Shown here: piece after piece, positions 1,765 to 33,627 of the stretch
How the letters are laid out: every line of letters begins with the position of its first letter
Numbering within the stretch: position 1 is the stretch's first letter
NCBI GenBank assembly: GCA_012551655.1
Contig: GCA_012551655.1_3034.1
From: a phage
DNA length: 33,627 bases
Strand: one strand, 5' to 3'
Program-made: the position numbers and the translations under genes
The notes under the pieces: model-generated
Seen by the model: only the letters and a program-made list of their open reading frames with translations
What the model was told of the DNA's origin: nothing
Databases searched by the model: none

Positions 1765-4700
1765 ATGGCCGAGATTAAAAGAAAGTTCAGAGCAGAAGAT
1801 GGTCTGGACGCAGGTGGCGATAAAATAATCAACGTAGCTTTAGCTGATCGTGCCGTAGGAACTGACGGTGTTAACGTTGATTACTTAATTCAAGAAAACA
1901 CAGTTCAACAATACGATCCAACTCGTGGATATTTAAAAGATTTTGTAATCATTTATGATAACCGCTTTTGGGCTGCTATAAATGATATTCCAAAACCAGC
2001 AGGAGCTTTTAATAGCGTACGCTGGAGAGCGTTACGTACTGATGCAAACTGGACAACTGTTTCATCAGGACCTTATCAATTAAAATCGGGCGAATCAATT
2101 TCAGTTGATACTGCAGCTGGTAATGACATTACATTTACTTTACCATCTTCTCCAATTGATGGTGATACCATCGTTCTCCAAGATATTGGAGGAAAACCTG
2201 GAGTTAATCAAGTTTTAATTACAGCTCCGGTACAAAGCATTGTAAATTTTAGAGGTCAGCAAGTACGTTCAGTACTAATGACTCATCCAAAATCACAGAT
2301 AGTTTTAATTTTTAGTAATCGTCTGTGGCAAATGTATGTTGCTGATTATAGTAGAGAAGCTGTAGTTGTAACTCCTGCGAGTCTCTATCAGGCACAATCA
2401 AACGATTTTATCGTACGTAGATTTACTTCTGCTTCAGCAATTAATATTAAACTTCCAAGATTTGCCAATCATGGCGATATTATTAATTTCGTTGATTTGG
2501 ATAAATTAAATCCTCTTTATCACACAATTGTTACTACATATGATGAAACAACTTCAGTACAAGAAGTTGGAACTCATTCCATTGAAGGTCGTACATCGAT
2601 TGACGGTTTCTTGATGTTTGATGATAATGAGAAATTGTGGAGATTGTTTGACGGGGATAGTAAAGCACGTTTACGCATTATAACAACTAATTCTAATATT
2701 CGTCCAAACGAAGAAGTCATGGTATTTGGCGCGAATAATGGAACAACCCAAACAATTGAACTTCAGCTTCCGACTGATATTTCTGTTGGTGATACTGTCA
2801 AAATTTCCATGAATTACATGAGAAAAGGACAAACAGTTAAAATCAAAGCTGCCGGTGAAGATAAAATTGCTTCTTCAGTTCAATTGCTGCAATTTCCAAA
2901 ACGTTCAGAATACCCACCTGAAACTAAATGGGTGACTGTTCAAGAATTAGTTTTTAATGGTGAAACCAATTATGTTCCAGTTTTACAGCTTGCTTATATC
3001 GAAGATTCCGATGGAAAATATTGGGTTGTACAGCAAAACGTTCCAACTGTAGAAAGAGTAGATTCTTTAAATGATTCTACTAGAGCAAGATTAGGCGTAA
3101 TTGCTTTAGCTACACAAGCTCAAGCTAACGTCGATTTAGAAAATTCTCCACAAAAAGAATTAGCAATTACTCCAGAAACATTAGCTAACCGTACTGCTAC
3201 AGAAACTCGTAGAGGTATCGCAAGAATAGCAACTACTGCTCAAGTTAACCAGGATACTACATTCTCTTTTGCTGATGATATTATCATCACTCCTAAAAAG
3301 CTGAATGAAAGAACTGCTACTGAAACTCGCAGAGGTGTTGCTGAAATTGCTACGCAGCAAGAAACTAATGCAGGAACCGATGACACTACAATCATCACTC
3401 CTAAAAAGCTTCAAGCTCGTCAAGGTTCTGAATCATTATCTGGTATTGTAACTTTTGTATCTACTGCAGGTGCTACTCCAGCTTCTAGCCGTGAATTAAA
3501 TGGTACAAATGTTTATAATAAAAACACTAATAACTTAGTTGTTTCACCTAAAGCCTTGGATCAGTATAAAGCTACTCCAACACAGCAAGGTGCAGTAATT
3601 TTAGCAGTTGAAAGTGAAGTAATTGCTGGACAGAGTCAAGAAGGATGGGCAAATGCAGTTGTAACTCCAGAAACGTTACATAAAAAGACATCAACTGATG
3701 GAAGAATTGGTTTAATTGAAATTGCTACGCAAAGTGAAGTTAATACAGGAACTGATTATACTCGTGCAGTCACTCCTAAAACTTTAAATGACCGTAGAGC
3801 AACTGAAAGTTTAAGTGGTATAGCTGAAATTGCTACACAAGTTGAATTCGACGCAGGCGTCGACGATACTCGTATCTCTACACCATTAAAAATTAAAACC
3901 AGATTTAATAGTACTGATCGTACTTCTGTTGTTGCTCTATCTGGATTAGTTGAATCAGGAACTCTCTGGGACCATTATACCCTTAATATTCTTGAAGCAA
4001 ATGAGACACAACGTGGTACACTTCGTGTAGCTACACAGGTCGAAGCTGCTGCAGGAACATTAGATAATGTTTTAATAACTCCTAAAAAGCTTTTAGGTAC
4101 TAAATCTACTGAAGCGCAAGAAGGTGTTATTAAAGTTGCAACTCAGTCTGAAACTGTGACTGGAACGTCAACAAATACTGCTGTATCTCCAAAAAATTTA
4201 AAATGGATTGTGCAGAGTGAACCTACTTGGGCAGCAACTACTCTGATAAGAGGTTTTGTTAAAACTTCATCTGGTTCAATTACGTTCGTTGGTAATGATA
4301 CAGTAGGTTCAACACAGCCATTAGAATCATATGAGAAAAATGGTTATGCAGTATCACCATATGAATTAAACCGTGTATTAGCAAATTATTTGCCGTTAAA
4401 AGCAAAAGCTGCTGATACAAATTTATTGGATGGTCTAGATTCATCTCAGTTCATTCGTAGGGATATTGCGCAGACAGTTAATGGTTCACTAACCTTAACC
4501 CAACAAACGAATCTGAGTGCCCCTCTTGTATCATCTAGTACTGCTACGTTCGGTGGATCAGTTTCAGCAAATAGTACATTAACTATTTCTAATACTGGAA
4601 CAGCAACTCGATTGATTTTTGAGAAAGGACCTCAAACTGGAACAAACCCAGCCCAAACGATGACTGTTAGAGTGTGGGGTAATCAATTTAGTGGGGAATC

Positions 4701-7488: not shown

Positions 7489-10400
7489 ATGGCTACTTTA
7501 AAACAAATACAATTTAAAAGAAGCAAAACTGCAGGAGCACGTCCTGCCGCTTCAGTATTAGCCGAAGGTGAATTGGCTATAAACTTAAAAGACCGTGTAC
7601 TTTTTACTAAAGATGACCAAGGAAATATTATTGATCTGGGTTTTGCTAAAGGCGGTAGTATTGACGGGAATGTTATTCATACAGGCAATTATAACCAAAC
7701 TGGCGATTATACTTTAAATGGCGTCTTCACTCAGACTGGTAATTTTAATTTAACTGGTATTGCTCGAGTAACTCGCGATATTATTGCCGCTGGGCAGATT
7801 ATGACTGAAGGCGGAGAACTTATTACAAAAAGTTCAGGTACAGCGCATGTTCGTTTTTTCGATAACAATAGTCGCGAACGCGGAATCATTTATGCCCCGG
7901 CTAATGATGGTTTAACTACACAAGTACTTAATATCAGGGTTCAAGACTACGCCGCTGGTAGCGAAAGCACTTATGCATTTTCAGGCAGTGGACTATTTAC
8001 TTCACCTGAAGTATCAGCATGGAAATCTATTTCGTCTCCACAAATTCTGACCAACAAAGTCATTACTAATAATAAATCTACGGGTGATTATGACATTTAT
8101 TCGATGGCAGACAATGTTCCACTGTCTGAAAGCACTACTGCTATTAATCATCTACGTGTCATGCGCAATGCAGTCGGTTCTGGTATTTTCCATGAAGTTA
8201 AAGATAATGATGGAATAACTTGGTATAGTGGAGATGGATTAGATGCTTATCTTTGGTCATTTACCTGGAGCGGCGGAATTAAATCAAGTCACTCAATTTC
8301 TATCGGTTTAACACCCGGTAATAAAGATTATTCAATATTAGGACCATCTAGCATTGCTTTAGGAGATAATGATACTGGATTTAAATGGCATCAAGACGGA
8401 TATTATTTCAGCGTTAATAATGGCACAAAAACGTTTTTATTTAGCCCTAGCGAAACAACTAGCCTAAGAAAATTTGTAGCTGGATATTCTACTAATGGAA
8501 CCGATTTAACTACTCCTCCAACTGAAAACTATGCTCTTGCTACTGTTGTGACATATCACGATAATAACGCGTTTGGAGATGGTCAGACTCTTTTGGGATA
8601 TTATCAAGGTGGTAATTATCATCATTATTTCCGCGGCAAGGGTACTACAAACATTAATACTCATGGCGGTTTGTTGGTTACTCCTGGTAATATTGACGTT
8701 ATTGGCGGTTCTGTAAATATAGATGGCCGTAATAATGCTTCTATACTGATGTTTAGAGGTAACACAACTGGTAGTAGCTCAGTTGATAATATGACAATTT
8801 CCGCGTGGGGTAATACTTTTACTAATCCTAGTGAAGGTACCCGTAAAAATGTCATGGAAATTTCTGATGCAACTAGCTGGATGAGCTATATTCAAAGACT
8901 TACTACTGGTGAAGTAGAAATGAACGTTAACGGTTCATTTGAATCATCTGGTGTTACTGCTGGAAATAGAGGAGTTCACACAACAGGCGAAATTTCATCT
9001 GGTGCAGTGAATGCTCTTCGTATTTGGAACGCAGATTATGGAGCCATTTTTAGACGTTCAGAAGGAAGTCTTCATATTATTCCAACTGCTTACGGTGAAG
9101 GTAAACACGGCGATATTGGTCCACTTCGCCCATTTAGTATGGCTTTAGATACTGGTAAAGTTACTATTCCAGATTTACAATCAAGTTACAATACGTTCGC
9201 TGCTAACGGTTATATTAAATTTGTTGGTCATGGAGCGGGTGCCGGCGGTTATGACATTCAATATGCTCAAGCGGCTCCTATTTTCCAGGAAATTGATGAT
9301 GATGCTGTAAGCAAATATTATCCTATTGTTAAACAGAAGTTTTTAAATGGTAAAGCCGTTTGGTCTTTAGGTACTGAAATTAATTCGGGTACATTCGTTA
9401 TTCATCATCTGAAAGAAGATGGATCACAGGGCCATACATCAAGATTTAATGCTGATGGTACAGTTAATTTCCCTGATAATGTTCTGGTCGGTGGTGGTGA
9501 AGCTGCTATTGCTCGTAATGGTAATATTTTCTCGGATATTTGGAAAACGTTTACTTCTGCAGGCGACGTAACTAATATTCGCGATGCAATAGCTACTCGT
9601 GTTGCCAAAGAAGGTGATACGATGACCGGCACTCTTTGGATTAATAAAGATGCTGCTGGAATAGTTCTTAATCCTCCTTTGGCCAGTGATTCATCATTTA
9701 TTCGTTCCGATACGGCCGGGGTCAATAATTGGTATATTGGTAAAGGCGGTGCCGACAATGGTCTAGGTTTTTACAGTTATGTTACACAAGGCGGTGTATA
9801 TATAACAAATAACGGAGAAATATCACTTTCTCCTCAAGGCCAAGGAACATTTAATTTTAATAGAGACCGCCTCCATATAAACGGTACACAATGGACCGCA
9901 CACCAGGGAGGTGGTTGGGGAAATCAATGGAATCAAGAAGCACCGGTATTTGTAGATTTTGGTAATGTTGGTAATGATAGTTATTATCCTATTATTAAAG
10001 GAAAATCCGGTATTACTAATGAAGGATACATATCTGGTGTAGATTTTGGTATGCGACGCATTACTAATACATGGGCACAAGGTATTATTCGTGTAGGTAA
10101 TCAGGAAAACGGTTACGACCCACAAGCTGTATATGAATTCCATCATAACGGTACTTTTTATGCTCCAAGCTTACTTAAGAGCAGTAGAGTATCAGCTGGT
10201 GGTGGTGACCCTGCATGGGGCGGGCCGTGTATTGTACTTGGAGATAACGATACCGGTTTGCTTTGGGAAAACGATGGTATTTTCAACGCATATGCAAACG
10301 GCCAAGGTGTGTTTAGTTTTAGACCTGGTTTAGCTCAGACATTCGGTGATGTTAACTTCCACTGTAATGCAGGTATGTATGTTCGTGATAACATTGATGT

Positions 10401-10740
10401 TAACGACGTTTATATTCGTTCTGATATTCGTTGTAAGTCGGAAATTAAGCTTATTAAGAACGCTCAAGAGAAATCTAAACTATTGGGCGGTTATACTTAT
10501 CTGCTTAAAAACTCTGTTACAGACGAAGTTAAACCGTCCGCAGGTTTAATTGCTCAGGAAGTTCAAGAAGTATTACCTGAACTTGTTTCTGAAGATAAAG
10601 AGACCGGACTGCTTCGTTTGAACTATAACGGTATTATTGGTTTAAATACAGCTGCAATAAACGAGCATACAGATGAAATCAAGGAATTGAAATCTGAAAT
10701 TGCCGAATTGAAAGCATTAATTAAATCATTGATAAAATAA
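7489..10740 (+). CDS. 37: Long tail fiber distal subunit gp37 (1083 aa) with C-terminal intramolecular-chaperone-like domain
   Basis: Large ORF after 36, N-terminus [39 protein letters not shown] typical of gp37; C-terminal ~120 aa ([10 protein letters not shown]...[15 protein letters not shown]...coiled coil) resembles auto-cleaved fiber chaperone domains. Confidence 0.95.
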   Translation: [1083 protein letters not shown]

Positions 10741-10745
10741 TAAAA

Positions 10746-10759
10746 GGGCCTTCGGGCCC
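10746..10759 (+). other. GGGCC-UUCG-GGCCC RNA hairpin at the 37-38 junction (no U-tract)
   Basis: Perfect 5-bp GC stem with UUCG tetraloop 6 nt after the 37 stop, followed by SD ggagg and the 38 ATG. Confidence 0.5.
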
Positions 10760-10770
10760 TGGAGGTTTAT

Positions 10771-11550
10771 ATGGCAGTAGTAGGAATCCCTGGTTGGATT
10801 GGGACTTCAGCCGTTGCTGAAACGGGACAAAGATGGATGACGGCTGCTTCAAGGGAACTTCGTTTAGGAAACCCTTCATGGATGTCCCAATTCGCGGGCC
10901 GTTCAAGAGAAATAATTCACACACTTGGAGCAGACCATAACTTCAATGGTCAATGGTTCCGAGATAGATGTTTTGAGGCAGGTAGTGCACCTATAGTGTT
11001 TAATATCACCGGAAATTTGGTATCATATAGTAAAGATGTTCCATTATTCTTTATGTATGGCGATACGCCAAATGAATATGTTACTTTGAATATTCATGGC
11101 GGAGTTCATATGTGGGGACGAGGTGGTAACGGTACTGTAAACGGAAACCCAGGCACTAATGGTGGCGATGTAATCCAAAATGATATCGGCGGAAGACTTC
11201 GTATTTGGAACTATGGCGTTATTGCATCAGGCGGTGGCGGTGGTGGTGCAGTGTCATTACAGAATAGCTGGGCACCAAATGCTACAGCAGGTGGCGGTGG
11301 TGGTAGACCGTTTGGCATCGGCGGAGGCGGCGTTAATTGGCCGGGTGGTAATGCTAGTTATGACGCGCCCGGCGGTGCCGGTTACACTTCCCAATTCGGC
11401 GGAGGCAATGGCGGTGATGCTGGAGGTCGGGGTGGAGATGGATGGGGTAATCACTTATCTAGATCCGGCGGTGGTGCTCCAGGTAGAGCGGTATTCGGTT
11501 CTTCACCATCATGGGGTGCAACAGGCACGATCTACGGTTCCTGGATTTAA
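10771..11550 (+). CDS. 38: gp38 receptor-binding adhesin of the T2/T6 type (259 aa, glycine-rich motifs)
   Basis: N-terminus [23 protein letters not shown]... and C-terminal half with poly-glycine blocks ([43 protein letters not shown]) as in T2-type gp38; the T4-type gp38 is a 183-aa chaperone. Confidence 0.9.
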
Positions 11551-11569
11551 ATGGTAATACCTCTCAGCA

Positions 11570-11577
11570 TATAAATA
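11570..11577 (+). promoter_or_regulatory. Late promoter for holin gene t
   Basis: TATAAATA 19 nt upstream of the t ATG; SD aaggagg. Confidence 0.7.
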
Positions 11578-11595
11578 TCCTTAAAAGGAGGGTCT

Positions 11596-12252
11596 ATGGC
11601 AGCACCTAGAATATCACTTTCGCCCTCTGATATTCTATTTGGTGTTCTAGATCGCTTGTTCAAAGATAACGCTACCGGGAAAGTTCTTGCTTCCCGGGTA
11701 GCTGTCGTAATTCTTTTGTTTATGATGGCGATTGTTTGGTATAGGGGAGATAGTTTCTTTGAGTACTATAAGCAATCAAAGTATGAAACATACAGTGAAA
11801 TTATTGAAAAGGAAAGAAATGCACGCTTTGAATCTGTCGCCCTGGAACAACTCCAGATAGTTCACATATCATCTGAGGCAGACTTTAGTGCGGTGTATTC
11901 TTTCCGCCCTAAAAACTTAAACTATTTTGTTGATATTATAGCATATGAAGGAAAATTACCTTCAACAATAAGTGAAAAATCACTTGGAGGATATCCTGTT
12001 GATAAAACTATGGATGAATATGCAGTTCATTTAAATGGACGTCATTATTATTCCAACTCAAAATTTGCTTTTTTACCAACTAAAAAGCCTACTCCCGAAA
12101 TAAACTACATGTACAGTTGTCCATATTTTAATTTGGATAATATCTATGCTGGAACGATAACCATGTACTGGTATAGAAATGATCATATAAGTAATGACCG
12201 CCTTGAATCAATATGTGCTCAGGCGGCCAGAATATTAGGAAGGGCTAAATAA
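11596..12252 (+). CDS. t: Holin T (218 aa)
   Basis: MAAPRISLSPSDILFGVLDRLFKDNATGK... with one N-terminal TMD and large periplasmic domain; size and sequence as recalled for T4 holin; follows 38. Confidence 0.9.
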   Translation: MAAPRISLSPSDILFGVLDRLFKDNATGKVLASRVAVVILLFMMAIVWYRGDSFFEYYKQSKYETYSEIIEKERNARFESVALEQLQIVHISSEADFSAVYSFRPKNLNYFVDIIAYEGKLPSTISEKSLGGYPVDKTMDEYAVHLNGRHYYSNSKFAFLPTKKPTPEINYMYSCPYFNLDNIYAGTITMYWYRNDHISNDRLESICAQAARILGRAK

Positions 12253-12525
12253 TTATTTGTTCGTATACATCTCTAGATATCGATATACACCCTCAAAACC
12301 CTCGTTGAATTCGTCGATGAGGGTTTTCTTATCTTCCTGAGTTAATTCAGAAACAATTTTACGGAATGAATTCTGATTTAATTTTCTACCTTCATGCGTT
12401 ACTCCAATCTCATTCAGAAATGCAATAAAATTAGCACGATTTTCAACAATATCTTCTCTGGAAAATTTAATCAAAATAGACGCAACAGTAATAATTTCAC
12501 GAACTGTATCAATATTTTTATTCAT
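12253..12525 (-). CDS. asiA: AsiA anti-sigma70 factor (90 aa)
   Basis: MNKNIDTVREIITVASILIKFSREDIVENRANFIAFLNEIGV... matches recalled T4 AsiA; 90 aa. Confidence 0.9.
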   Translation of the reverse strand: MNKNIDTVREIITVASILIKFSREDIVENRANFIAFLNEIGVTHEGRKLNQNSFRKIVSELTQEDKKTLIDEFNEGFEGVYRYLEMYTNK

Positions 12526-12537
12526 TAACTATACCAC

Positions 12538-12690
12538 TCAATTAGTTGACTTTGTTATAATATCATCAGACGCTTGATTTGTAAACTGGTCTGTGTTATT
12601 TTCTTCAAAAATTTTTTCTACGAATTCCTTGAACGACTCGCGTTCCTGAGCTGCATTATGCTCGATTACCTTTTCAAGATTATGACTCAT
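12538..12690 (-). CDS. Hypothetical acidic 50-aa protein between arn and asiA
   Basis: ATG at 12690-12688 overlaps the arn stop (ATGA); MSHNLEKVIEHNAAQERESFKEFVEKIFEENNTDQFTNQASDDIITKSTN; not in the ORF track (<60 aa). Confidence 0.35.
   Translation of the reverse strand: MSHNLEKVIEHNAAQERESFKEFVEKIFEENNTDQFTNQASDDIITKSTN
12557..12586 (-). promoter_or_regulatory. T4-type early promoter for asiA
   Basis: Minus strand GTTTAC (12586-12581), 18-bp spacer, TATTAT (12562-12557); lies inside the upstream small ORF. Confidence 0.55.
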
Positions 12691-12965
12691 TCGAAATAAT
12701 CTTCAATTTCGTAATCATGGACGTAAATCATTATAGTTTTTAATACATCATCAATACTTTTTCCTGGAGCTGGAATTACGTAAAAATATCCTGCTTTTGA
12801 GAGGTCTTTATAAGTTCCAACCAAGAAATCATTATTCTCGAGATGTAATTCTTCAACTAATTCATTAACAATTGAATGGTATAAATTTGGTAGAAACTTA
12901 TATAGCTTTTCTAGAATATCAATTTTGATTGTGTATTGAACCACAGACTGAGAATCAATAATCAT
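12687..12965 (-). CDS. arn: Arn anti-restriction protein (McrBC inhibitor), 92 aa
   Basis: 92-aa acidic ORF immediately upstream of asiA, size and position as T4 arn; sequence identity recalled only loosely. Confidence 0.75.
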   Translation of the reverse strand: MIIDSQSVVQYTIKIDILEKLYKFLPNLYHSIVNELVEELHLENNDFLVGTYKDLSKAGYFYVIPAPGKSIDDVLKTIMIYVHDYEIEDYFE

Positions 12966-13048
12966 AGACCTTCCCCTTGTGTTTCTGTTTGCGATTAGAT
13001 TCTTTAAACGCTTTCTTCTTATCTTTATGAACAGAAGCTTTATTAAAA

Positions 13049-13267
13049 TTATGCTTTGCGACTAAATTGTTCATAGTGCTGAATTACCTCTCTCAAACAT
13101 TTGCATGTGAATGAAAACTTTTTAGCTACACCACATTCAAATATGTGTTCTCTTAAATCACGTGTATCAGTATATCCCATCTCAACAATAAAATGCCGTA
13201 TTAGATTTTTATCTTTATCATTGAGAGAATTAAAATAATCAGATTTTGAATTAATTTCCCTGGCCAA
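13049..13267 (-). CDS. Hypothetical 72-aa protein (arn.x-like), probable TTG start
   Basis: ORF with SD aaggtga 5-6 nt before TTG at 13267; Cys-rich (ECGVAKKFSFTCKC); no ATG near the 5' end, so start uncertain. Confidence 0.4.
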   Translation of the reverse strand: MAREINSKSDYFNSLNDKDKNLIRHFIVEMGYTDTRDLREHIFECGVAKKFSFTCKCLREVIQHYEQFSRKA

Positions 13268-13547
13268 ATTGAATCACCTTCAGTTGACGTTTTAATTCTT
13301 TTATCATTTCTTCGTTCATCGCAATATAAAGATCGCGTAAAGCGGGTTTTAGCATTCCATTTACCGGAAAACTAAATGGGCATACATAATCTTTTCCTAC
13401 AAGCTTTTTAGTTAATTCCATATCACAGAACTGAAATGCCGGTTCATTGGCATAAATTCCCCAATTAGTTGACATCATTTTATTGGCATATTCCAACGCC
13501 TGGATTTGATTCATAATTCCATCAATTTGAAACTTTTTAATATTCAT
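13251..13547 (-). CDS. Hypothetical 98-aa protein
   Basis: ATG with GAGGA SD, start overlaps upstream stop by 1 nt; sits in the T4 arn.1-arn.4 position. Confidence 0.6.
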   Translation of the reverse strand: MNIKKFQIDGIMNQIQALEYANKMMSTNWGIYANEPAFQFCDMELTKKLVGKDYVCPFSFPVNGMLKPALRDLYIAMNEEMIKELKRQLKVIQFGQGN

Positions 13548-14008
13548 TAGTAAAGGTCCTCAGAGTAAAGTTCTTTTTCACTACCACCACGTTCAATACG
13601 TACTTGTCCAGCGTAAGTTGCAATAATCATTGCTTCTTCACGTGTCCAATAATTACTATATTGGTCAATAAATCCTTGGTCATCATCGCAAACTTGCTGA
13701 GTAACTAATTGAGGTTTAACTACATCTAAAACTTCTGCCATATCTTTAGAATAATGACGAGCACCTGGAATAATAAGAGTTCGTCCATCTTTTAATTTAA
13801 AACGATTGGCTGCGCAAACAATCCGTCGTTGATACTTTTGGTTTTCATCCCAATATGCAGTCTGCCAACAGATTTCAGGAACTTCTTTCAGAATATCTTC
13901 TTCTGTGCATTTATAACCATGCGCTTTAAATTTTTCAACAAGACTTTCTGGAGTCTCACGAGATAAAGGAACATTCAGCATTTTTAAACGATTAATAAAT
14001 GGGTTCAT
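13547..14008 (-). CDS. Hypothetical 153-aa protein
   Basis: ATG at 14008 overlaps upstream stop (ATGA); SD-like ggatgg; no motif I can name. Confidence 0.6.
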
Positions 14009-14334
14009 TTAAACCATCCTTTAATACGCTGCCACAAAGTTTTCTGTTGAGCTTTGTTAACACCAATTGAACGAATAACTGGTTGAGATTCCTGGAATTC
14101 TTTATAATCAGCAAGGTAAATTTCGTAAGCTGCATCCGTAAATGAACTTATCGCTGCCATAAAATTATTGCGAATACCTACTGGAGCATCTTTACTTTCA
14201 CGAATAATCATGTATTTACCAGTCTTAATCTTTACAATAGTTCCAAGATAAGCTCCATGGTACCAAATATCCCAACCCTCTTGAGTAGGTTCTGCACAAC
14301 GACGAAGTTCATTGACAATTTCTAACTTGTTCAT
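14005..14334 (-). CDS. Hypothetical 109-aa protein (motA.1 position)
   Basis: ATG with GAGGA SD, 10 nt downstream of the motA stop. Confidence 0.6.
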
Positions 14335-14980: not shown

Positions 14981-15006
14981 TTTGTTTCTCCGTAGTTGAT
15001 AAGACT

Positions 15007-15036
15007 ATAATACCATAAGTTAAAGCAGAAGTAAAC
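15007..15036 (-). promoter_or_regulatory. T4-type early promoter for motA
   Basis: GTTTAC (15036-15031), 18-bp spacer, TATTAT (15012-15007), conserved leader tatcaactacggag, then ATG. Confidence 0.55.
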
Positions 15037-15044
15037 TTTATTTT

Positions 15045-15064
15045 GAGCTCTTTTTCAAGAGCTC
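15045..15064. other. Perfect 8-bp inverted repeat GAGCTCTT/AAGAGCTC (hairpin) between the 71-aa ORF and the motA promoter
   Basis: Seen directly; 4-nt loop; no flanking U-tract on either strand. Confidence 0.5.
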
Positions 15065-15077
15065 TGGTAAAAATTAC

Positions 15078-15293
15078 TTAGATTGATAGGTCTTTAATCT
15101 TAGCTATTAAAACAGCTTTTCCTTCACGAAGTTTTTCCAGTTTACGACCATTAGAGCCGCGAACTACTAAGGAATTTATCTCCACTTCCAACCAATTTAG
15201 TTTTTCAACTAGTTCTTTACGTTTAGCATTCATGCCGGGTTTAACTTTACCGAAACGGGTGGTAGCGTTTTGAGTATTTTTCATCTTATTCAT
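15078..15293 (-). CDS. Hypothetical basic 71-aa protein
   Basis: ATG at 15293 with GGAGA SD, downstream of an early promoter; K/R-rich. Confidence 0.55.
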   Translation of the reverse strand: MNKMKNTQNATTRFGKVKPGMNAKRKELVEKLNWLEVEINSLVVRGSNGRKLEKLREGKAVLIAKIKDLSI

Positions 15294-17204: not shown

Positions 17205-17360
17205 TCAACTATTTTTAGAACCAATGTACGCGAATAATGATAAAATCGCTAATACGCCCTGAGCAGATGCTTGCAAAAATACTGAAGTTTCTCCAGTTAT
17301 TACTGTTCCGATGCATAAAAAGAACCAACAGAAAAAGGCTATACCGTGAACAAGTTTCAT
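17205..17360 (-). CDS. Ac-like small membrane protein, copy 2 (51 aa), paralog of copy 1
   Basis: ATG at 17360 with GAGGA SD; MKLVHGIAFFCWFFLCIGTVITGETSVFLQASAQGVLAILSLFAYIGSKNS; shares F-x-CW...SVF-Q-A-AQG pattern with copy 1; not in the ORF track. Confidence 0.55.
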   Translation of the reverse strand: MKLVHGIAFFCWFFLCIGTVITGETSVFLQASAQGVLAILSLFAYIGSKNS

Positions 17361-18863: not shown

Positions 18864-19123
18864 AGTTCAATCTCAGCGATTTTCATTTCATTACTATTAA
18901 TAGCCTCTTTAAGACTATCTGAAAGAATTACATTCCAGTGGTCATTCATATGACCATTAACTAAGCGTGTAATTTCTTCAGGAGTTGAAAAATAAGGCTG
19001 ATCAGACTCCCAATGCGATAATTCTAAGCGAGTATAAATCATGCCTTCATCATCGCTAGAATATTCAACTGACACAAACTCATCAGTTATTTTATGTTTA
19101 GCGTAATAAAATTTAAATTTCAT
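18860..19123 (-). CDS. Hypothetical 87-aa protein
   Basis: Track ORF 18860..19216 trimmed to ATG at 19123 after SD GGAGGAG: MKFKFYYAKHKITDEFVSVEYSSDDEGMIYTRLELSHWESDQPYF... Confidence 0.55.
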   Translation of the reverse strand: MKFKFYYAKHKITDEFVSVEYSSDDEGMIYTRLELSHWESDQPYFSTPEEITRLVNGHMNDHWNVILSDSLKEAINSNEMKIAEIEL

Positions 19124-19149
19124 TTTTACTCCTCCGTAGCTGATAGTTG

Positions 19150-19755: not shown

Positions 19756-20017
19756 TTAAACTTTCCTTTTTACCGCTGAGATAAGCGTTATACACTTTAA
19801 GAGTACCGTAGTAAATTCGGTCATTTTCATCTAAAGACACACGGTCAAGTTCATCAAGTTCCTTTTTATCCATGACTATAACATCATTGCAATAAAGAAA
19901 CCCAAGTTTTTCGTGACCAAACTCAAATTTATTACAGTACACAATATTAGCGTGATGATTTCCATGCAGTTTAATCTCTTTTATGTCGGAATCACCGATA
20001 TTCATACAATAAATCAT
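19688..20017 (-). CDS. Hypothetical 109-aa protein; 3' end overlaps denB by 68 nt
   Basis: ATG at 20017 with aaggaaaa SD directly after a terminator-like hairpin; acidic low-complexity C-terminal tail. Confidence 0.5.
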   Translation of the reverse strand: MIYCMNIGDSDIKEIKLHGNHHANIVYCNKFEFGHEKLGFLYCNDVIVMDKKELDELDRVSLDENDRIYYGTLKVYNAYLSGKKESLNAENESGATETISDSDIYPIEQ

Positions 20018-23649: not shown

Positions 23650-23679
23650 ATTATACCACATCCTTGTGGTAAAGTAAAC
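23650..23679 (-). promoter_or_regulatory. T4-type early promoter for rIIA.1-rIIA, overlapping the 3' end of gene 39
   Basis: GTTTAC (23679-23674), 18 bp, TATAAT (23655-23650). Confidence 0.55.
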
Positions 23680-25496
23680 TACTGGCTCATCCATTCTTTA
23701 CGAAGGTCAGCATTATCTCCCATGAGCATTTCAAAAAGCTCTTTCCAGTTCTCAGGAAGTTTAACAACATCATATACTGGATTTTGAATCATCTCACGAT
23801 ATTCAGATTTTTCCAAAGAGCCAAGTCCTTTAATATAACGGATGCTATGTTTAGGTAGAGCATCTTTGGCACTCTCATATTCAGCGACTGTATAAAACCA
23901 TTCTTGTTTTTTACCGACCTGAGCGATGATTACAGGAGTTTTGACAAAGCGAATTCGTCCTTGCTCAAACAATTCTGGCCAATTACTAAAAAATCCAAGC
24001 AGAGAAGGATAAATGCTTCCTAGACCATCATGGTCAGCATCAGTCATAATAGCAATATTATGATAATTCAAGTTTTCAGCTTTTTCACCGAGAACTAATC
24101 CAGTGATTGCGCAAATATCAAATAGTTCTTTGTTTTTAAGCATATCAGCATATGACATACCCCAACTATTAAGAACTTTACCACGCAATGGATAACCACC
24201 ATGAAGTTCTTTATCACGAACATCAATAAGATATCCGATAGCCGAATCACCCTCAGTCAAGAAAAGAGTCGTGTCAGCATCTTTACCACAAAGATTCGCT
24301 TTAATATGTTTATGAACCTTAGCTTTAGAAGCCTTTTTAGCTGCTTTTGTTTCTGCTGCTTTTTCTGCTGCCAATTTACGAGCCAAAGCAGCTTCAATAA
24401 TCGGCATTAGAATTGCTTCATTATTTAGAATAGCACGTGAAATCTTTTTAGCATCAAGCTGAATATGACTACGGATTTCACCAAATGGAGAAGTCAAACG
24501 CTCTTTAGTTTGAGAATCAAATCGCATGTTTTTCATATCACGAACAAACATAACGATAGTCAAACATTCTTTAACACGTGCTTTAGTTACATCAATTTTG
24601 AATTTACGTTTGATTTGTGGAATAAGGTCTTCACAAATATCATCCATAACACAGTCAATGTGATGGCCACCATTCTTAGTGTGAATGTTATTCACATAAG
24701 TTAATTGACGAAATCCATCCGGTGAACGACCAACCGCAATAGAACAATTTTCTTGTTCTTGAACAATAGCATGTTCATCATACTGTCGTGCATATTTCTT
24801 AAAATTACCCTGAACCTTTTTACCATTAAAGGTAAATTGAATATCAGGATAAACAACAGCAAGTGTCTGGAGACGATCTAGTGTAATGTCAAGATAAACT
24901 TGGGACAGCTCATTAGTTTCAAATGACATAAAATCAGGAATGAAAGTAACACGAGTTCCTTTCCATTTTCCTGGAATAGTTTCCCATGATTTATTTTCCA
25001 TGCCATTTGAACAACGAACTACAATATTATTTTGACCATCGCCAGTTTCACCAACAAACATCACAGAAAAAATGTTAGTTAAACTAGAACCAACACCGTT
25101 CATACCGCCGGTGACGCGTTCTTTATCATCACCGAAGTTACCACCTGCTTTTGGAATAGTCCATGCAGCAACAGGACCAGGAATTTCTTCACCGGTAGGT
25201 GTTTTAACCATCGCTTGTGGAATACCGCGACCGTTATCTTCAACTGTTACTTGATTGTTTTTAATAGTAACGTTAATTTTATTTGCGAATTTAAACTTAG
25301 TACGAATACCTTCATCTACTGAGTTATCGATAATTTCATCAATAAGCTTAACAAGACCAGGTACATACTGAACACTTTCCCATTTACCAAACAGAAAGCG
25401 CTCATGCATTTCATTAGCAGAAGAACCAATGTACATGCCGCTACGCTTTTTGATATGTTCAATATCGCTCAGAATTTTAATTTCATTCTTAATCAT
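23679..25496 (-). CDS. 39: DNA topoisomerase II large subunit gp39, unsplit (605 aa; GyrB-like ATPase plus Toprim)
   Basis: Track ORF begins at GTG; ATG at 25496 with GAGGA SD. Motifs EIIDNSVDE and DNGRGIP (GHKL ATPase), EGDSA and DADHDG (Toprim). Single continuous ORF. Confidence 0.9.
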   Translation of the reverse strand: MIKNEIKILSDIEHIKKRSGMYIGSSANEMHERFLFGKWESVQYVPGLVKLIDEIIDNSVDEGIRTKFKFANKINVTIKNNQVTVEDNGRGIPQAMVKTPTGEEIPGPVAAWTIPKAGGNFGDDKERVTGGMNGVGSSLTNIFSVMFVGETGDGQNNIVVRCSNGMENKSWETIPGKWKGTRVTFIPDFMSFETNELSQVYLDITLDRLQTLAVVYPDIQFTFNGKKVQGNFKKYARQYDEHAIVQEQENCSIAVGRSPDGFRQLTYVNNIHTKNGGHHIDCVMDDICEDLIPQIKRKFKIDVTKARVKECLTIVMFVRDMKNMRFDSQTKERLTSPFGEIRSHIQLDAKKISRAILNNEAILMPIIEAALARKLAAEKAAETKAAKKASKAKVHKHIKANLCGKDADTTLFLTEGDSAIGYLIDVRDKELHGGYPLRGKVLNSWGMSYADMLKNKELFDICAITGLVLGEKAENLNYHNIAIMTDADHDGLGSIYPSLLGFFSNWPELFEQGRIRFVKTPVIIAQVGKKQEWFYTVAEYESAKDALPKHSIRYIKGLGSLEKSEYREMIQNPVYDVVKLPENWKELFEMLMGDNADLRKEWMSQ

Positions 25497-25523
25497 CACT
25501 TATCCTCGTTTGGTTTCGGGAAT

Positions 25524-25826: not shown

Positions 25827-25830
25827 AATT

Positions 25831-26202
25831 TCACTCAAATTTAATGGCTTGAAGAAGACTAATAATTCTCAAGCGACTTCTTTCATCTTTAACTGTAAAA
25901 GAAAGAGGGTCACCAGATTTCATAGTGATGGTGCATCCAAAATCAAAATCTTCTGTAACTTCTTCGAAGAAGTCAAATTCTTCATCATAAATTAGAACAT
26001 TACTCTGAAAGCTGTGAAGAATTTTTCCATCATTTCCAGATGCTGTACTAATCATTGTAACATTATGACCTTTCATATCTTCAACGATAAATTCGCTTGT
26101 AGATATTACTGCATTAATAGAACCGTTCCTATGAATAGCAGAAAATAGATATTTCTTTTCTTCACCTTCGCGAACACGATATTTCTTACCGATTTTAAAC
26201 AT
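25831..26202 (-). CDS. Hypothetical 123-aa protein
   Basis: ATG at 26202, 2 nt after the upstream stop. Confidence 0.55.
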   Translation of the reverse strand: MFKIGKKYRVREGEEKKYLFSAIHRNGSINAVISTSEFIVEDMKGHNVTMISTASGNDGKILHSFQSNVLIYDEEFDFFEEVTEDFDFGCTITMKSGDPLSFTVKDERSRLRIISLLQAIKFE

Positions 26203-29981: not shown

Positions 29982-30219
29982 TAATAATCGCCTCATAAAG
30001 ATAGCTAATTTCGCCTAAAACATAATCATTAATTGTAACAGTTTTCACTTCACCGCAAAAGAATTCTAACGCAATTAAATCTCGTTCAATTTCTTCTAAT
30101 TGAAGCATCAACTTACTAGATTCAATTTTTACAGTTTCACGATTTTTACCATGAGCAATTTCATAAATTTCGCTAACTTTATCCTGAAGAAGATAAAACT
30201 GATCTTTAGTTATTTCCAC
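29974..30219 (-). CDS. Hypothetical ~81-aa protein, tandem paralog 2 (probable GTG start)
   Basis: No ATG near the 5' end; GTG at 30219 preceded by GAGGAAG; VEITKDQFYLLQDKVSEIYE...LEEIERDL...TINDYVLGEI aligns with paralog 1. Confidence 0.45.
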   Translation of the reverse strand: MEITKDQFYLLQDKVSEIYEIAHGKNRETVKIESSKLMLQLEEIERDLIALEFFCGEVKTVTINDYVLGEISYLYEAIIND

Positions 30220-30466
30220 GAATAGCTTCCTCAAATTTAATCAATAATTTACAGACACTTTCATCTAGTGTAATTACCGTATCTGTATTACTGTGATATG
30301 ATTGTTTTTCAATTCGTTTAATTGCTAATATAGTATCACTTATAAGATAAAGCTTATGAAGGAGCTCAGCTCCTGTTACCATAACATTAAGATTATCTTG
30401 CTTATTAGTATGCTTCCTTATACCATCTATTAGACGATTTAAATATTTTGAATTGATGTTAATCAT
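30206..30466 (-). CDS. Hypothetical 86-aa protein (possibly a distant third paralog)
   Basis: ATG with GAGGA SD, 6 nt after the dda stop. Confidence 0.55.
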   Translation of the reverse strand: MININSKYLNRLIDGIRKHTNKQDNLNVMVTGAELLHKLYLISDTILAIKRIEKQSYHSNTDTVITLDESVCKLLIKFEEAIRGNN

Positions 30467-30472
30467 ATATCC

Positions 30473-31792
30473 TCACACATAAAACACATCATAACGACCA
30501 CGAGTGACACCAACATAAAGAAGCTGCTGAGCTAATTCAGCATCTGCATAATGAATACAAGGCGTATAAATGAAAGCACGGTCTACAGACATACCCTGCG
30601 CTTTATGGAATGTTGATGCAGGAAGTGCTTTCACTTTACTAAACTGTGATTTAGCATCCCAAAAATCGCTCCACGGAGCTTTTCCGCCTTTGTTCCAATT
30701 TTTATAAGTTTCTGCTGTTTTACCTAAAAATAGGTTAAACTTATACAATTCTTCATCAGATGAAATTATTTTAATCTTTTCACGATAATATTCATCATCG
30801 CCATAAGTTTCTACTGTTAAATCCCAATGACGAATTAAGTATTCCCCAGAAACACCACGAGCTTTAACAAACGTTGATGTATACTCTGCTTCTATAATAC
30901 GAACTAATTGTCCGTTATTAAAAATAATTTCTGACACAGGCTTTCCATCAATTTTATATGTTTTAATTAATGGTTCCTGCATTACAATAATTTCACCGAC
31001 AATAAAATCTTTATCAGTTTCAAAAATCTTTTTACGAATGATGTTATTTAACTTGTCAACAGATTTATTCGTAAATGCCATTACGCGATTTTCAAACAAA
31101 TCATCTAGTGATTTTACGATTGAAAAATAATTTACCATAAAATCGCGTAAAGCAGTATCACCAGTAAATCCACGTACTCCATGCCCGTCAACAACTTTGT
31201 CATAAATCCACTTACCGTTGCGAACGTCAGTAGCTACATCAATAATAGGAGCATTACTGCGTTTAACTTCAGTGAGTTCACACTGATAAAAATCTTTATG
31301 TGTAAAGAATGGACTGATATAAGCAGTATTTTCTCCTGGGTCAACAGGTCTAATTTGCTTATTATCACCTATTCCAATTATAGTACACCACGGCGGGATA
31401 GTTGAAAGCAGAATTTTAAATAGCTTTCTATCATACATTGACACTTCATCGCAGATTAATACCCTGCATTTAGCTAAATCTGGTACTTCCTTCTGCTCAA
31501 AAAGAACGTTTTCTTCATATGTTACTGGGTTAATTTTAAGAATACTATGAATAGTACTTGCTTCTTTCCCTGATAGTTTTGAAAGAATCTTTTTAGCTGC
31601 ATGAGTAGGAGCTGCTAAAATAATACCAGTTTCACCCGTAGATATTAAAGCTTCAATGATGAATTTGGTAAGAGTAGTCTTACCGGTGCCAGCAGGTCCA
31701 TTAATAGTTACATGATGTTTCTTTTCTTTAATAGCCTTCATAACAATGTTAAAGGCATTTTTCTGGCCTTCGGTCAAATCATCAAATGTCAT
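30473..31792 (-). CDS. dda: Dda DNA helicase (439 aa, SF1)
   Basis: 439 aa as T4 Dda; Walker A GPAGTGKTT; MTFDDLTEGQKNAFNIVMKAIKEKKHHVTINGPAGTGKT... Confidence 0.9.
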   Translation of the reverse strand: MTFDDLTEGQKNAFNIVMKAIKEKKHHVTINGPAGTGKTTLTKFIIEALISTGETGIILAAPTHAAKKILSKLSGKEASTIHSILKINPVTYEENVLFEQKEVPDLAKCRVLICDEVSMYDRKLFKILLSTIPPWCTIIGIGDNKQIRPVDPGENTAYISPFFTHKDFYQCELTEVKRSNAPIIDVATDVRNGKWIYDKVVDGHGVRGFTGDTALRDFMVNYFSIVKSLDDLFENRVMAFTNKSVDKLNNIIRKKIFETDKDFIVGEIIVMQEPLIKTYKIDGKPVSEIIFNNGQLVRIIEAEYTSTFVKARGVSGEYLIRHWDLTVETYGDDEYYREKIKIISSDEELYKFNLFLGKTAETYKNWNKGGKAPWSDFWDAKSQFSKVKALPASTFHKAQGMSVDRAFIYTPCIHYADAELAQQLLYVGVTRGRYDVFYV

Positions 31793-32100
31793 CGTAAATT
31801 CCCTGCAATTGGTATACTAACAATACGCCCAGTATCTAAAATTCGCTGATATAATCTTTGTGTGTCTACGTCAGGCTTAACATGTTTAACTTCTATTTTA
31901 TTAAACCAAAACTTACGTGGAGTCTCAACTAATCTTGGAATTCCCTTACCTAAAGCTAGTCGATACTGTTCTTTAAGAGTAGTAAATACTTTATCAGCAA
32001 TCTTCCATTCAAAAAATACAGCAGGACGATGTTCATCAAGCGGAACTGGCGCCGTAAATCCGTCTTTGTCTCGGTAAACTATCGCATATACATAAACCAT
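31789..32100 (-). CDS. Hypothetical 103-aa protein between srd and dda
   Basis: ATG 1 nt after the srd stop; 3' end overlaps the dda start by 4 nt. Confidence 0.55.
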   Translation of the reverse strand: MVYVYAIVYRDKDGFTAPVPLDEHRPAVFFEWKIADKVFTTLKEQYRLALGKGIPRLVETPRKFWFNKIEVKHVKPDVDTQRLYQRILDTGRIVSIPIAGNLR

Positions 32101-32101
32101 A

Positions 32102-32848
32102 TTATCCTCGGATAAGTTTAAAAATTGAACAATTTAGCGGGTATCCTCTTTTCAGTTTAAGTTTATCAATAAAAGACAAGTTTTGATACCGCTCTACACC
32201 TTGAATAATTTTATCACACATATCATATTGCATTTCTGCTTCTGACAACTTTTTCACAATTTTCCAATCCGAGCCTTTAAGAAGAACGTTCAGTTTAACA
32301 ACTTCAGCGCCTTCTGCTATGCGAGAACCATCAATACGAGCTTTAAGTGCTATAATCCTTAGCTTAATGTCAGAGGTCTGTTTTGATTTAGAAAGCTGAG
32401 AAATGTGTTCAATTCGATTTTCACGTTTTTTCTGTATAGCTTTAATTTGATTATAAGTCTTTTTGATTTTAGCCCATTTCTTTTCATCTAAATTTAGTTT
32501 ATGAACTTTTTTCGCAGATGAACGACCAATTCGCAAAGCAAATAAATCCCGTTTTTCAATTAACTCCTCTAAAGTATAATCAGAACGAAATGTATTATAC
32601 TTTTTCTTTACTGCAATAACATTCCCTTTAATGTATCCAACGTTATTATCAAAACGTTCTAATGATAATTTCTCTCCTTCAATACGATTATCAAAAGGTT
32701 CTCCCGAGTAAGCACAAACTTTTTGATCTAAAATGTTCTTAATGTAATTGAAGTCTAAGTTAAAATCTTTAGAACGTCTTTTTGCAGATGCCTGAGTATG
32801 CTCTAAACGACGTTTAATTTTACGAATTTGGTTATTAGACAGCTTCAT
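32102..32848 (-). CDS. Srd-like protein (248 aa; assignment by size and position)
   Basis: Basic 248-aa ORF upstream of dda with its own early promoter, as for T4 srd; sequence not independently recognised. Confidence 0.5.
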   Translation of the reverse strand: MKLSNNQIRKIKRRLEHTQASAKRRSKDFNLDFNYIKNILDQKVCAYSGEPFDNRIEGEKLSLERFDNNVGYIKGNVIAVKKKYNTFRSDYTLEELIEKRDLFALRIGRSSAKKVHKLNLDEKKWAKIKKTYNQIKAIQKKRENRIEHISQLSKSKQTSDIKLRIIALKARIDGSRIAEGAEVVKLNVLLKGSDWKIVKKLSEAEMQYDMCDKIIQGVERYQNLSFIDKLKLKRGYPLNCSIFKLIRG

Positions 32849-32884
32849 ATTTTTCTCACATCTTACGGACGGTTAACTACTTAT

Positions 32885-32914
32885 ACTATAACATTTTTAC
32901 TTCAGCTTGTAAAC
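32885..32914 (-). promoter_or_regulatory. T4-type early promoter for the srd-dda-dexA transcription unit
   Basis: GTTTAC (32914-32909), 18 bp, TATAGT (32890-32885). Confidence 0.5.
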
Positions 32915-32971
32915 AACTTTATGTAAAAATGCTTTAAAAATTTCATGGTATAATGAATCTAAGTCCTTCCA

Positions 32972-33574
32972 TTATAGATTAAATCCTTCAAAATCAAGAG
33001 TATAGATAGTGTATGTTGAATACTTTTTGTACTCATATCTATCTGCAATTCTAAATACACTTCCAGCTGGTATCATTACTTCTTGTTCATCTGAAACTAA
33101 TTCCATATTACGATAACGATGGCTATCCGGAAACTTAAAGTTTGGATTGTATTCTTTACAGCGCAGAGCTTTTATAGCATACTCCTGGAAATTGAATACC
33201 ATAGGAGCTTTGAATTCAAAAATAACTTGTGTGTTATACTCTAAACCAGAAGCAAAATGTAGAGCTATATTTTTATCATATGAAGCTGATACGACTTTAT
33301 CAAATGTAATAATATCAATTCCTTGATTTAACACCTGCTTAGTCTCAGCTGGAACACCTCTCCAAAGAGGTTTATCGTTTGGAACCAAACGAGATTTGAT
33401 TATTTCATTTAACCAAGTATGGTCATCTGGCTTATTAGTAATACAATGAATTAAAAGTTCAATTTCAGATAAATTAAACCCTTCAGAAAGTAATTCTTCA
33501 CGAATAGAAGCACGCACCGATGCATCCATTGATTTTATTTTAAAATCTTTTAGTTGCATTACTGAGTATTTCAT
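32972..33574 (-). CDS. ADP-ribosyltransferase of the ModA/ModB family (200 aa)
   Basis: 200 aa; candidate R (LWRGV), S-x-S (VSASY) and E-x-E-like (DEQEV) residues in the expected order; position next to srd as T4 modB/modA. Which of the two it is cannot be decided. Confidence 0.55.
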   Translation of the reverse strand: MKYSVMQLKDFKIKSMDASVRASIREELLSEGFNLSEIELLIHCITNKPDDHTWLNEIIKSRLVPNDKPLWRGVPAETKQVLNQGIDIITFDKVVSASYDKNIALHFASGLEYNTQVIFEFKAPMVFNFQEYAIKALRCKEYNPNFKFPDSHRYRNMELVSDEQEVMIPAGSVFRIADRYEYKKYSTYTIYTLDFEGFNL

Positions 33575-33627
33575 TCAACTACCTCAATATCATAAACTTT
33601 AAATGTTCCAAATGAATCGTGTAATTT
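33571..33627 (-). CDS. 3' end (18 codons) of an upstream minus-strand gene, probably the second mod-family gene
   Basis: Open frame ...KLHDSFGTFKVYDIEVVE* whose TGA overlaps the ATG at 33574 (ATGA). Confidence 0.4.
   Translation of the reverse strand, partial: KLHDSFGTFKVYDIEVVE

Follow-up and report, generated by a model that had tools for sequence, protein, structure and literature searches.

Which genes occupy the end of the phage contig GCA_012551655.1_3034.1 (GenBank assembly GCA_012551655.1), and how do they relate to the ADP-ribosyltransferases of phage T4? The stretch analysed, referred to throughout as the window, is 33,627 nucleotides long and breaks off within a pair of adjoining minus-strand genes: a complete open reading frame (ORF) of 200 residues and a second gene represented by its 3' end. 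A preliminary description, made from the sequence alone, had placed the ORF in the ADP-ribosyltransferase (ART) family and had described the pair as two adjacent ART genes. Here, we find with a probability of about 0.97 that the 200-residue ORF represents modA, an early gene of Tequatrovirus, that the truncated gene overlapping its start is modB, and that the two encode paralogous arginine-specific R-S-E mono-ADP-ribosyltransferases. The identification draws on sequence identity, motif conservation, predicted fold and synteny, all determined here. The finding is thus real, was rightly placed in the ART family and is already known: modA and modB belong to the textbook repertoire of T4 host takeover, and the copy in the window is essentially identical to those of hundreds of sequenced Tequatroviruses.

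In a megablast search, positions 32000-33627 of the window matched 503 phage records, almost all of them Tequatrovirus, with an identity of 98.5% to T4 (10937-12563) and of 99.0% to phage TB37, and the match of modA and modB is therefore not a product of chance. The T4 annotation at the matching positions reads dda, dda.1, srd, modA (11908-12510) and modB (12507-13130). Collinearity with T4 extends over the remainder of the window, from rnh and genes 34-38 through rIIB, rIIA, 39 and dexA to dda. The modA coding sequence taken from the ORF list (32972..33574, minus strand, ATG start) specifies a protein with 198 of 200 residues identical to T4 ModA (NP_049635), and this 99% identity confirms the family assignment. 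T4 ModA shares the length of 200 residues, the motif residues, the position between modB and srd, the ATGA overlap with modB and a spacer of about 122 base pairs (bp); it differs only by the substitutions S53T and C186Y, both of which are common to other natural Tequatroviruses such as TB37 and lie outside the invariant columns of the family. The exact ModA sequence is indexed in 362 blocks of a public assembly collection, including GenBank MK327928.1, and each of the four contigs inspected encodes the exact protein. RB18 and vB_EcoM_112 carry a 100% identical copy, and a tblastn search returned 256 phage records with a copy at least 99% identical. A single-protein ModA scan for related loci yielded six near-identical loci only.

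The second gene is visible in the window as its last 18 codons and a TGA stop (33571..33627, minus strand; translation KLHDSFGTFKVYDIEVVE*), with the catalytic part and the start lying past the window edge. These 57 nucleotides are identical, 57 of 57, to the 3' end of the 207-residue modB in four relatives (loci L006-L009), and the 18-residue tail KLHDSFGTFKVYDIEVVE with its stop is identical (18/18) to the C-terminus of T4 ModB (NP_049636, 207 residues); on these two matches the gene is identified as modB. Of the two adjacent ART genes claimed before, modA can thus be read directly, whereas modB is seen as 18 codons only and is recognised through its identity to relatives and T4. In all close relatives inspected, modB carries R73, the serine and the ExE motif within the full 207-residue frame. 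A separate observation concerns the phage T2 record AP018813.1 (locus L017, 883-1504), in which modB is annotated as two ORFs of 142 and 42 residues and not as one 207-residue gene; the split stems either from a frameshift or stop in T2 modB or from an error of sequencing or annotation.

The stop of modB overlaps the start of modA in an ATGA, as the preliminary description had noted (33571..33574, minus strand; the plus strand reads 'tcat'), with the modB TGA at 33573-33571 and the modA ATG at 33574-33572. The same overlap is present in the T4 annotation, where modB spans 12507-13130 and modA 11908-12510. A GAGG Shine-Dalgarno sequence of modA lies within the modB coding sequence (33582..33585, minus strand), 7 nucleotides upstream of the ATG (upstream sequence ...ATTGAGGTAGTTGA-ATG). 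The overlap together with this internal GAGG suggests that translation of modB and modA may be coupled. The adjoining position of modA and modB also agrees with T4, as had been claimed, and the order on one strand, modB, modA, spacer, srd, dda.1 and dda, is likewise found in Dhakavirus IME08.

Is ModA built as an arginine-specific transferase? The motif R, S-x-S and E-x-E had been recognised in the right order from the letters, and we locate it at R72, S96-A97-S98 and E163-Q164-E165, which constitute the catalytic motif. Across an alignment of 16 family members, reaching down to 22% identity, R72, G73, S96, E163 and E165 are invariant. ModA matches PHROG 832 'RNA polymerase ADP-ribosylase' (E 1.4e-33), and modA and modB alike bear the family label PF26816 Mod_ADP_RT, which comes from precomputed annotation only. 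ModA and T4 ModB are 27% identical (E 2e-16) and thus paralogues with the same motif columns. The family is narrow, as an exhaustive HMMER search found only 20 clusters among 1.84 billion cluster representatives; five of its members weakly match Pfam DRAT. When the family profile was compared with the Protein Data Bank (PDB), the top matches were weak (E 0.08-0.18) and all of them ARTs, with YRG, TSxS and ExE placed on the Vis toxin and EQE on XopAI. Previous work reported that both ModA and ModB carry R-S-EXE (PMC10468400), that the E165A variant of T4 ModA is catalytically inactive (PMC11404850), and that the Mod family and Alt belong to the RSE clade (PMC9503650).

An AlphaFold2 model of ModA computed from the 16-member alignment (predicted local distance difference test 95.1, predicted template modelling score 0.88) adopts an ART fold with a cleft for nicotinamide adenine dinucleotide (NAD), the feature to which the preliminary description had pointed for a structural check. 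In this model R72 lies in the strand 70-73, S96-S98 lie in the strand 95-98 with a helix after it, and E165 opens the strand 165-168. The catalytic triad aligns with that of known ARTs, and the outcome that the preliminary description had named as refuting its claim thus did not occur. The PDB matches named in a Foldseek search with the model are ARTs, namely iota toxin Ia, C3, Certhrax, CDTa, HopU1, XopAI and VIP2. The predicted structure confirms that the Mod family, for which no structure has been solved, possesses an R-S-E ART fold and carries the motif on its canonical elements. Compared with the R-S-E bacterial ART toxins (C3 exoenzymes, iota toxin Ia/CDTa/VIP2, Certhrax, Vis, HopU1, XopAI and Tre1), ModA shows 11-17% identity, has an N-terminal helical region of its own (residues 5-60) and lacks a secretion or translocation partner; its target is RNA polymerase alpha, whereas the toxins act on actin, Rho and other eukaryotic or bacterial targets.

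Alignment with T4 ModA, ModB and Alt had been suggested as a check. The alignments to ModA and ModB bore the assignment out, whereas that to Alt did not, with no significant pairwise similarity between ModA and T4 Alt (BLASTP best E = 11). ModA is not a member of the Alt family, and the two share only the fold-level R-S-E clade. Alt shares with ModA the ADP-ribosylation of Arg265 on RNA polymerase alpha and is placed in the RSE clade (PMC9503650); unlike ModA, it is a protein of 682 residues that is packaged in the virion, injected with the DNA and modifies one alpha subunit only, and its gene (123454-125502 in T4) lies about 110 kb from modA.

What would these enzymes do during infection? Here we take substrates, timing and physiological effect from the T4 literature, given the 99% identity. 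T4 ModA ADP-ribosylates Arg265 of both RNA polymerase alpha subunits, with loss of the contacts to UP elements and to CRP, and the protein is highly toxic (PMC2988021). ModB acts on translation-associated proteins and links NAD-capped RNAs to the ribosomal proteins S1 and L2, a reaction termed RNAylation (PMC10468400); the annotation of the T4 record lists ribosomal protein S1, EF-Tu and trigger factor as its substrates. By analogy, modB, modA and srd would be co-transcribed early, in this order, from the minus strand. ModA would then use NAD+ to modify Arg265 on both alpha subunits of the Escherichia coli RNA polymerase, and the abolished UP-element and CRP contacts would lower transcription from host and T4 early promoters, while ModB would ADP-ribosylate translation-associated proteins and RNAylate S1 and L2.

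Several points weigh against the identification of the pair as active modA and modB with these roles. Deletion of modA in T4 leaves the shut-off of early transcription unchanged (PMC2988021), so that the physiological role given above for ModA is partly tentative even in T4. The catalytic motif of modB is not readable from the 18 codons in the window. Moreover, ModA had no match in local Pfam-A or NCBIfam scans, and a single-protein search of the PDB sequences with this member of a structurally unsolved family returned none either.

Could the 200-residue ORF instead be a decayed or catalytically inactive copy? The two substitutions relative to T4 ModA would be the trace of such decay. However, the reading frame is intact and preceded by a good Shine-Dalgarno sequence, all invariant residues of the family are kept, and S53T and C186Y fall outside the invariant columns and recur in TB37. 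With the exact protein in 4/4 contigs inspected and the 256 nearly identical records, an inactive copy is highly improbable. Similarly, the protein might function in the manner of ModB, by targeting translation factors and by RNAylation, since it belongs to the same family and carries the same R-S-ExE motif. Yet its identity is 99% to T4 ModA as compared to 27% to T4 ModB, and the ORF holds the position of modA, with a gene upstream of it that has a tail identical to that of ModB, so that we give a ModB-type function hardly any weight relative to an active ModA.

A further alternative concerns the gene content of the locus. The preliminary description had supposed that T4 carries modA.2-4 between srd and the mod genes and that this phage has lost them, and the short srd-modA spacer (32849-32971), 123 bp long and without an ORF, could indeed be read in this way. 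T4 itself, however, has a srd-modA spacer of 122 bp and carries modA.2-4 at 13198-14016, upstream of modB and past the point corresponding to the window end; therefore, nothing is deleted here. The transcription order in T4 is modA.4, modA.3, modA.2, modB, modA, the 122-bp spacer and srd, and the same order was found in TB37, in contigs with identical ModA, in UFV10, in T2 and in Dhakavirus IME08, whereas the window stops short of modA.2-4. Within the four inspected genomes that carry the exact ModA, modB, modA.3 and modA.4 lie upstream in all four, and the 60-residue modA.2 is called in three; in locus L009, modA.2 is not among the called genes. A loss of modA.2-4, already refuted by the T4 annotation, is thus extremely unlikely, and the check corrects what was a false inference of a deletion.

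The spacer had also been described as a promoter region of about 120 bp, which agrees with its 123 bp and with a promoter-like site facing srd. This T4 early-type site (32885..32913, minus strand) was found in a promoter scan with 10 of 12 matches and the TG extension, and consists of TTTACA, 17 bp and TG-n-TATAGT. The two hexamers recur throughout the Tequatrovirus loci, although L009, L011, L012 and L016 have lost a few bases immediately 3' of the -10 hexamer, and a comparable -35/-10 pair occurs in IME08 and S143_2. An Rfam scan of 31000-33627 gave no match, and the predicted RNA fold of the spacer is not convincing (z = -1.9); we claim no terminator or structured element there.

On the opposite strand, a pattern search revealed a middle-promoter-like site (32930-32954, plus strand) directed antisense into modA, with a MotA box TGCTTTA, a 12-bp spacer and the extended -10 element TGG-TATAAT, in which TATAAT is preceded by TGG; it reads AAATGCTTTA-AAAATTTCATGG-TATAAT. 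The published consensus of T4 middle promoters is a MotA box (a/t)(a/t)(a/t)TGCTTtA at 12 +/- 1 bp from a -10 element TAtaaT (PMC2988021), and the site fits both consensus and spacing. The window contains 9 matches to the pattern TGCTTNA-N11-13-TANNNT as compared to 2.1 expected, and four of the minus-strand matches coincide with the mapped T4 promoters PdsbA, P34i (oriG), PrIIB2 and Pdex.2, as judged by coordinate conversion against the published table (PMC2988021). Table 1 of this review (PMC2988021), with its 58 mapped T4 middle promoters, does not contain the antisense site; the T4 records do not annotate it either, and it was not found in the literature searched, which excluded the primary promoter-mapping papers and Miller et al. 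2003.

Is the antisense site conserved among related phages? It is present in the window and in all 15 other Tequatrovirus loci examined, and, with diverged bases between the boxes, in Dhakavirus, Mosigvirus, Gelderlandvirus, Karamvirus and Jiaodavirus (one genome each). In the six Tevenvirinae genera, TGCTTT[A/T/C], 12-13 bp and TATAAT form the only antisense-strand match in each of the loci examined, which span 3.2-7.6 kb. In the window, the -10 element of the site falls outside modA and upstream of the srd -35 hexamer, within the A/T-rich stretch that precedes the srd promoter. In Gelderlandvirus, Karamvirus and Jiaodavirus the site lies downstream, not upstream, of the srd early-type promoter, and this position in three genera argues against the site being merely a part of the UP element of the srd promoter. 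Taken at the level of sequence, we consider it possible, if on balance doubtful, that the spacer holds a functional MotA/AsiA-dependent middle promoter firing antisense into modA and modB. The putative antisense transcript would start near 32961, about 7 nucleotides past the -10 element, and the T4 equivalent of the site lies at about 11866-11890.

Two related proposals were considered and rejected. A conserved antisense terminator was sought in two plus-strand hairpins within modA (33356-33392), which lack a consistent counterpart in IME08 or S143_2. Could the antisense site represent a MotA-dependent promoter linked to oriA? The oriA-linked promoter we take to be P56/69 (start 16813 in Table 1). 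The review leaves this promoter unnamed and locates oriA close to soc, at a distance of about 3.4 kb (PMC2988021), and no connection between the site and oriA emerged.

Downstream of modA, the 248-residue srd ORF (32102..32848, minus strand) was assigned through PHROG 1400 'Srd anti-sigma factor' (E 3.3e-108) and the T4 annotation. Its N-terminal 90-160 residues match phage HNH-endonuclease and endonuclease VII PHROGs (E 1e-18 to 1e-8), which points to an HNH-like domain as either a part or the origin of Srd. Two further minus-strand entries of the ORF list encode 103 residues (31789-32100) and 439 residues (30473-31792). Between dexA.2 and dda lies an extra 86-residue ORF (30206-30466, minus strand) that matches PHROG 4967 (E 9e-59) of unknown function; it is absent from T4 and present in TB37 and other relatives.

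Elsewhere in the window, the large subunit of topoisomerase II is a single 606-residue ORF (23679-25499, minus strand) matching PHROG 543, with the gp60-type PHROG 7229 on residues 453-606. The T4-specific insertion by which genes 39 and 60 are separated (the gene 60 bypass segment, 60.1 and mobA) is absent (24014-24079 vs T4 2793-3911). The distal tail-fibre region with distal gene 37 and gene 38 (7655-11570) does not align with T4. Its gp38 ORF (10771-11550, plus strand) has 259 residues, as opposed to 183 in T4, and matches 'tail fiber protein; host specificity' and adhesin PHROGs; it looks like a T2-type adhesin arrangement and not a T4-type assembly chaperone. No blastn alignment to T4 was obtained for 14997-15293, between motA and gene 52, nor for 17207-17356, 18892-19133, 19769-19965 and 25828-26200 in the ac/ndd/denB and 39.1/39.2 regions; these stretches are probably swaps of small accessory ORFs. 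The extended -10 motif TGNTATAAT occurs 12 times in the window as compared to 3.4 expected from shuffles, an excess in keeping with the many early and middle promoters packed into this part of the T4 genome.

The antisense middle-promoter-like site is the only item here that could lead somewhere. If the site is a promoter, its putative roles would be to supply an antisense RNA in the middle phase or to stop the toxic early ADP-ribosyltransferases from being made, through transcriptional interference that may in some genera occlude the srd early promoter as well. If active, it would provide a simple and testable mechanism by which T4-like phages turn off toxic early enzymes at a set time.
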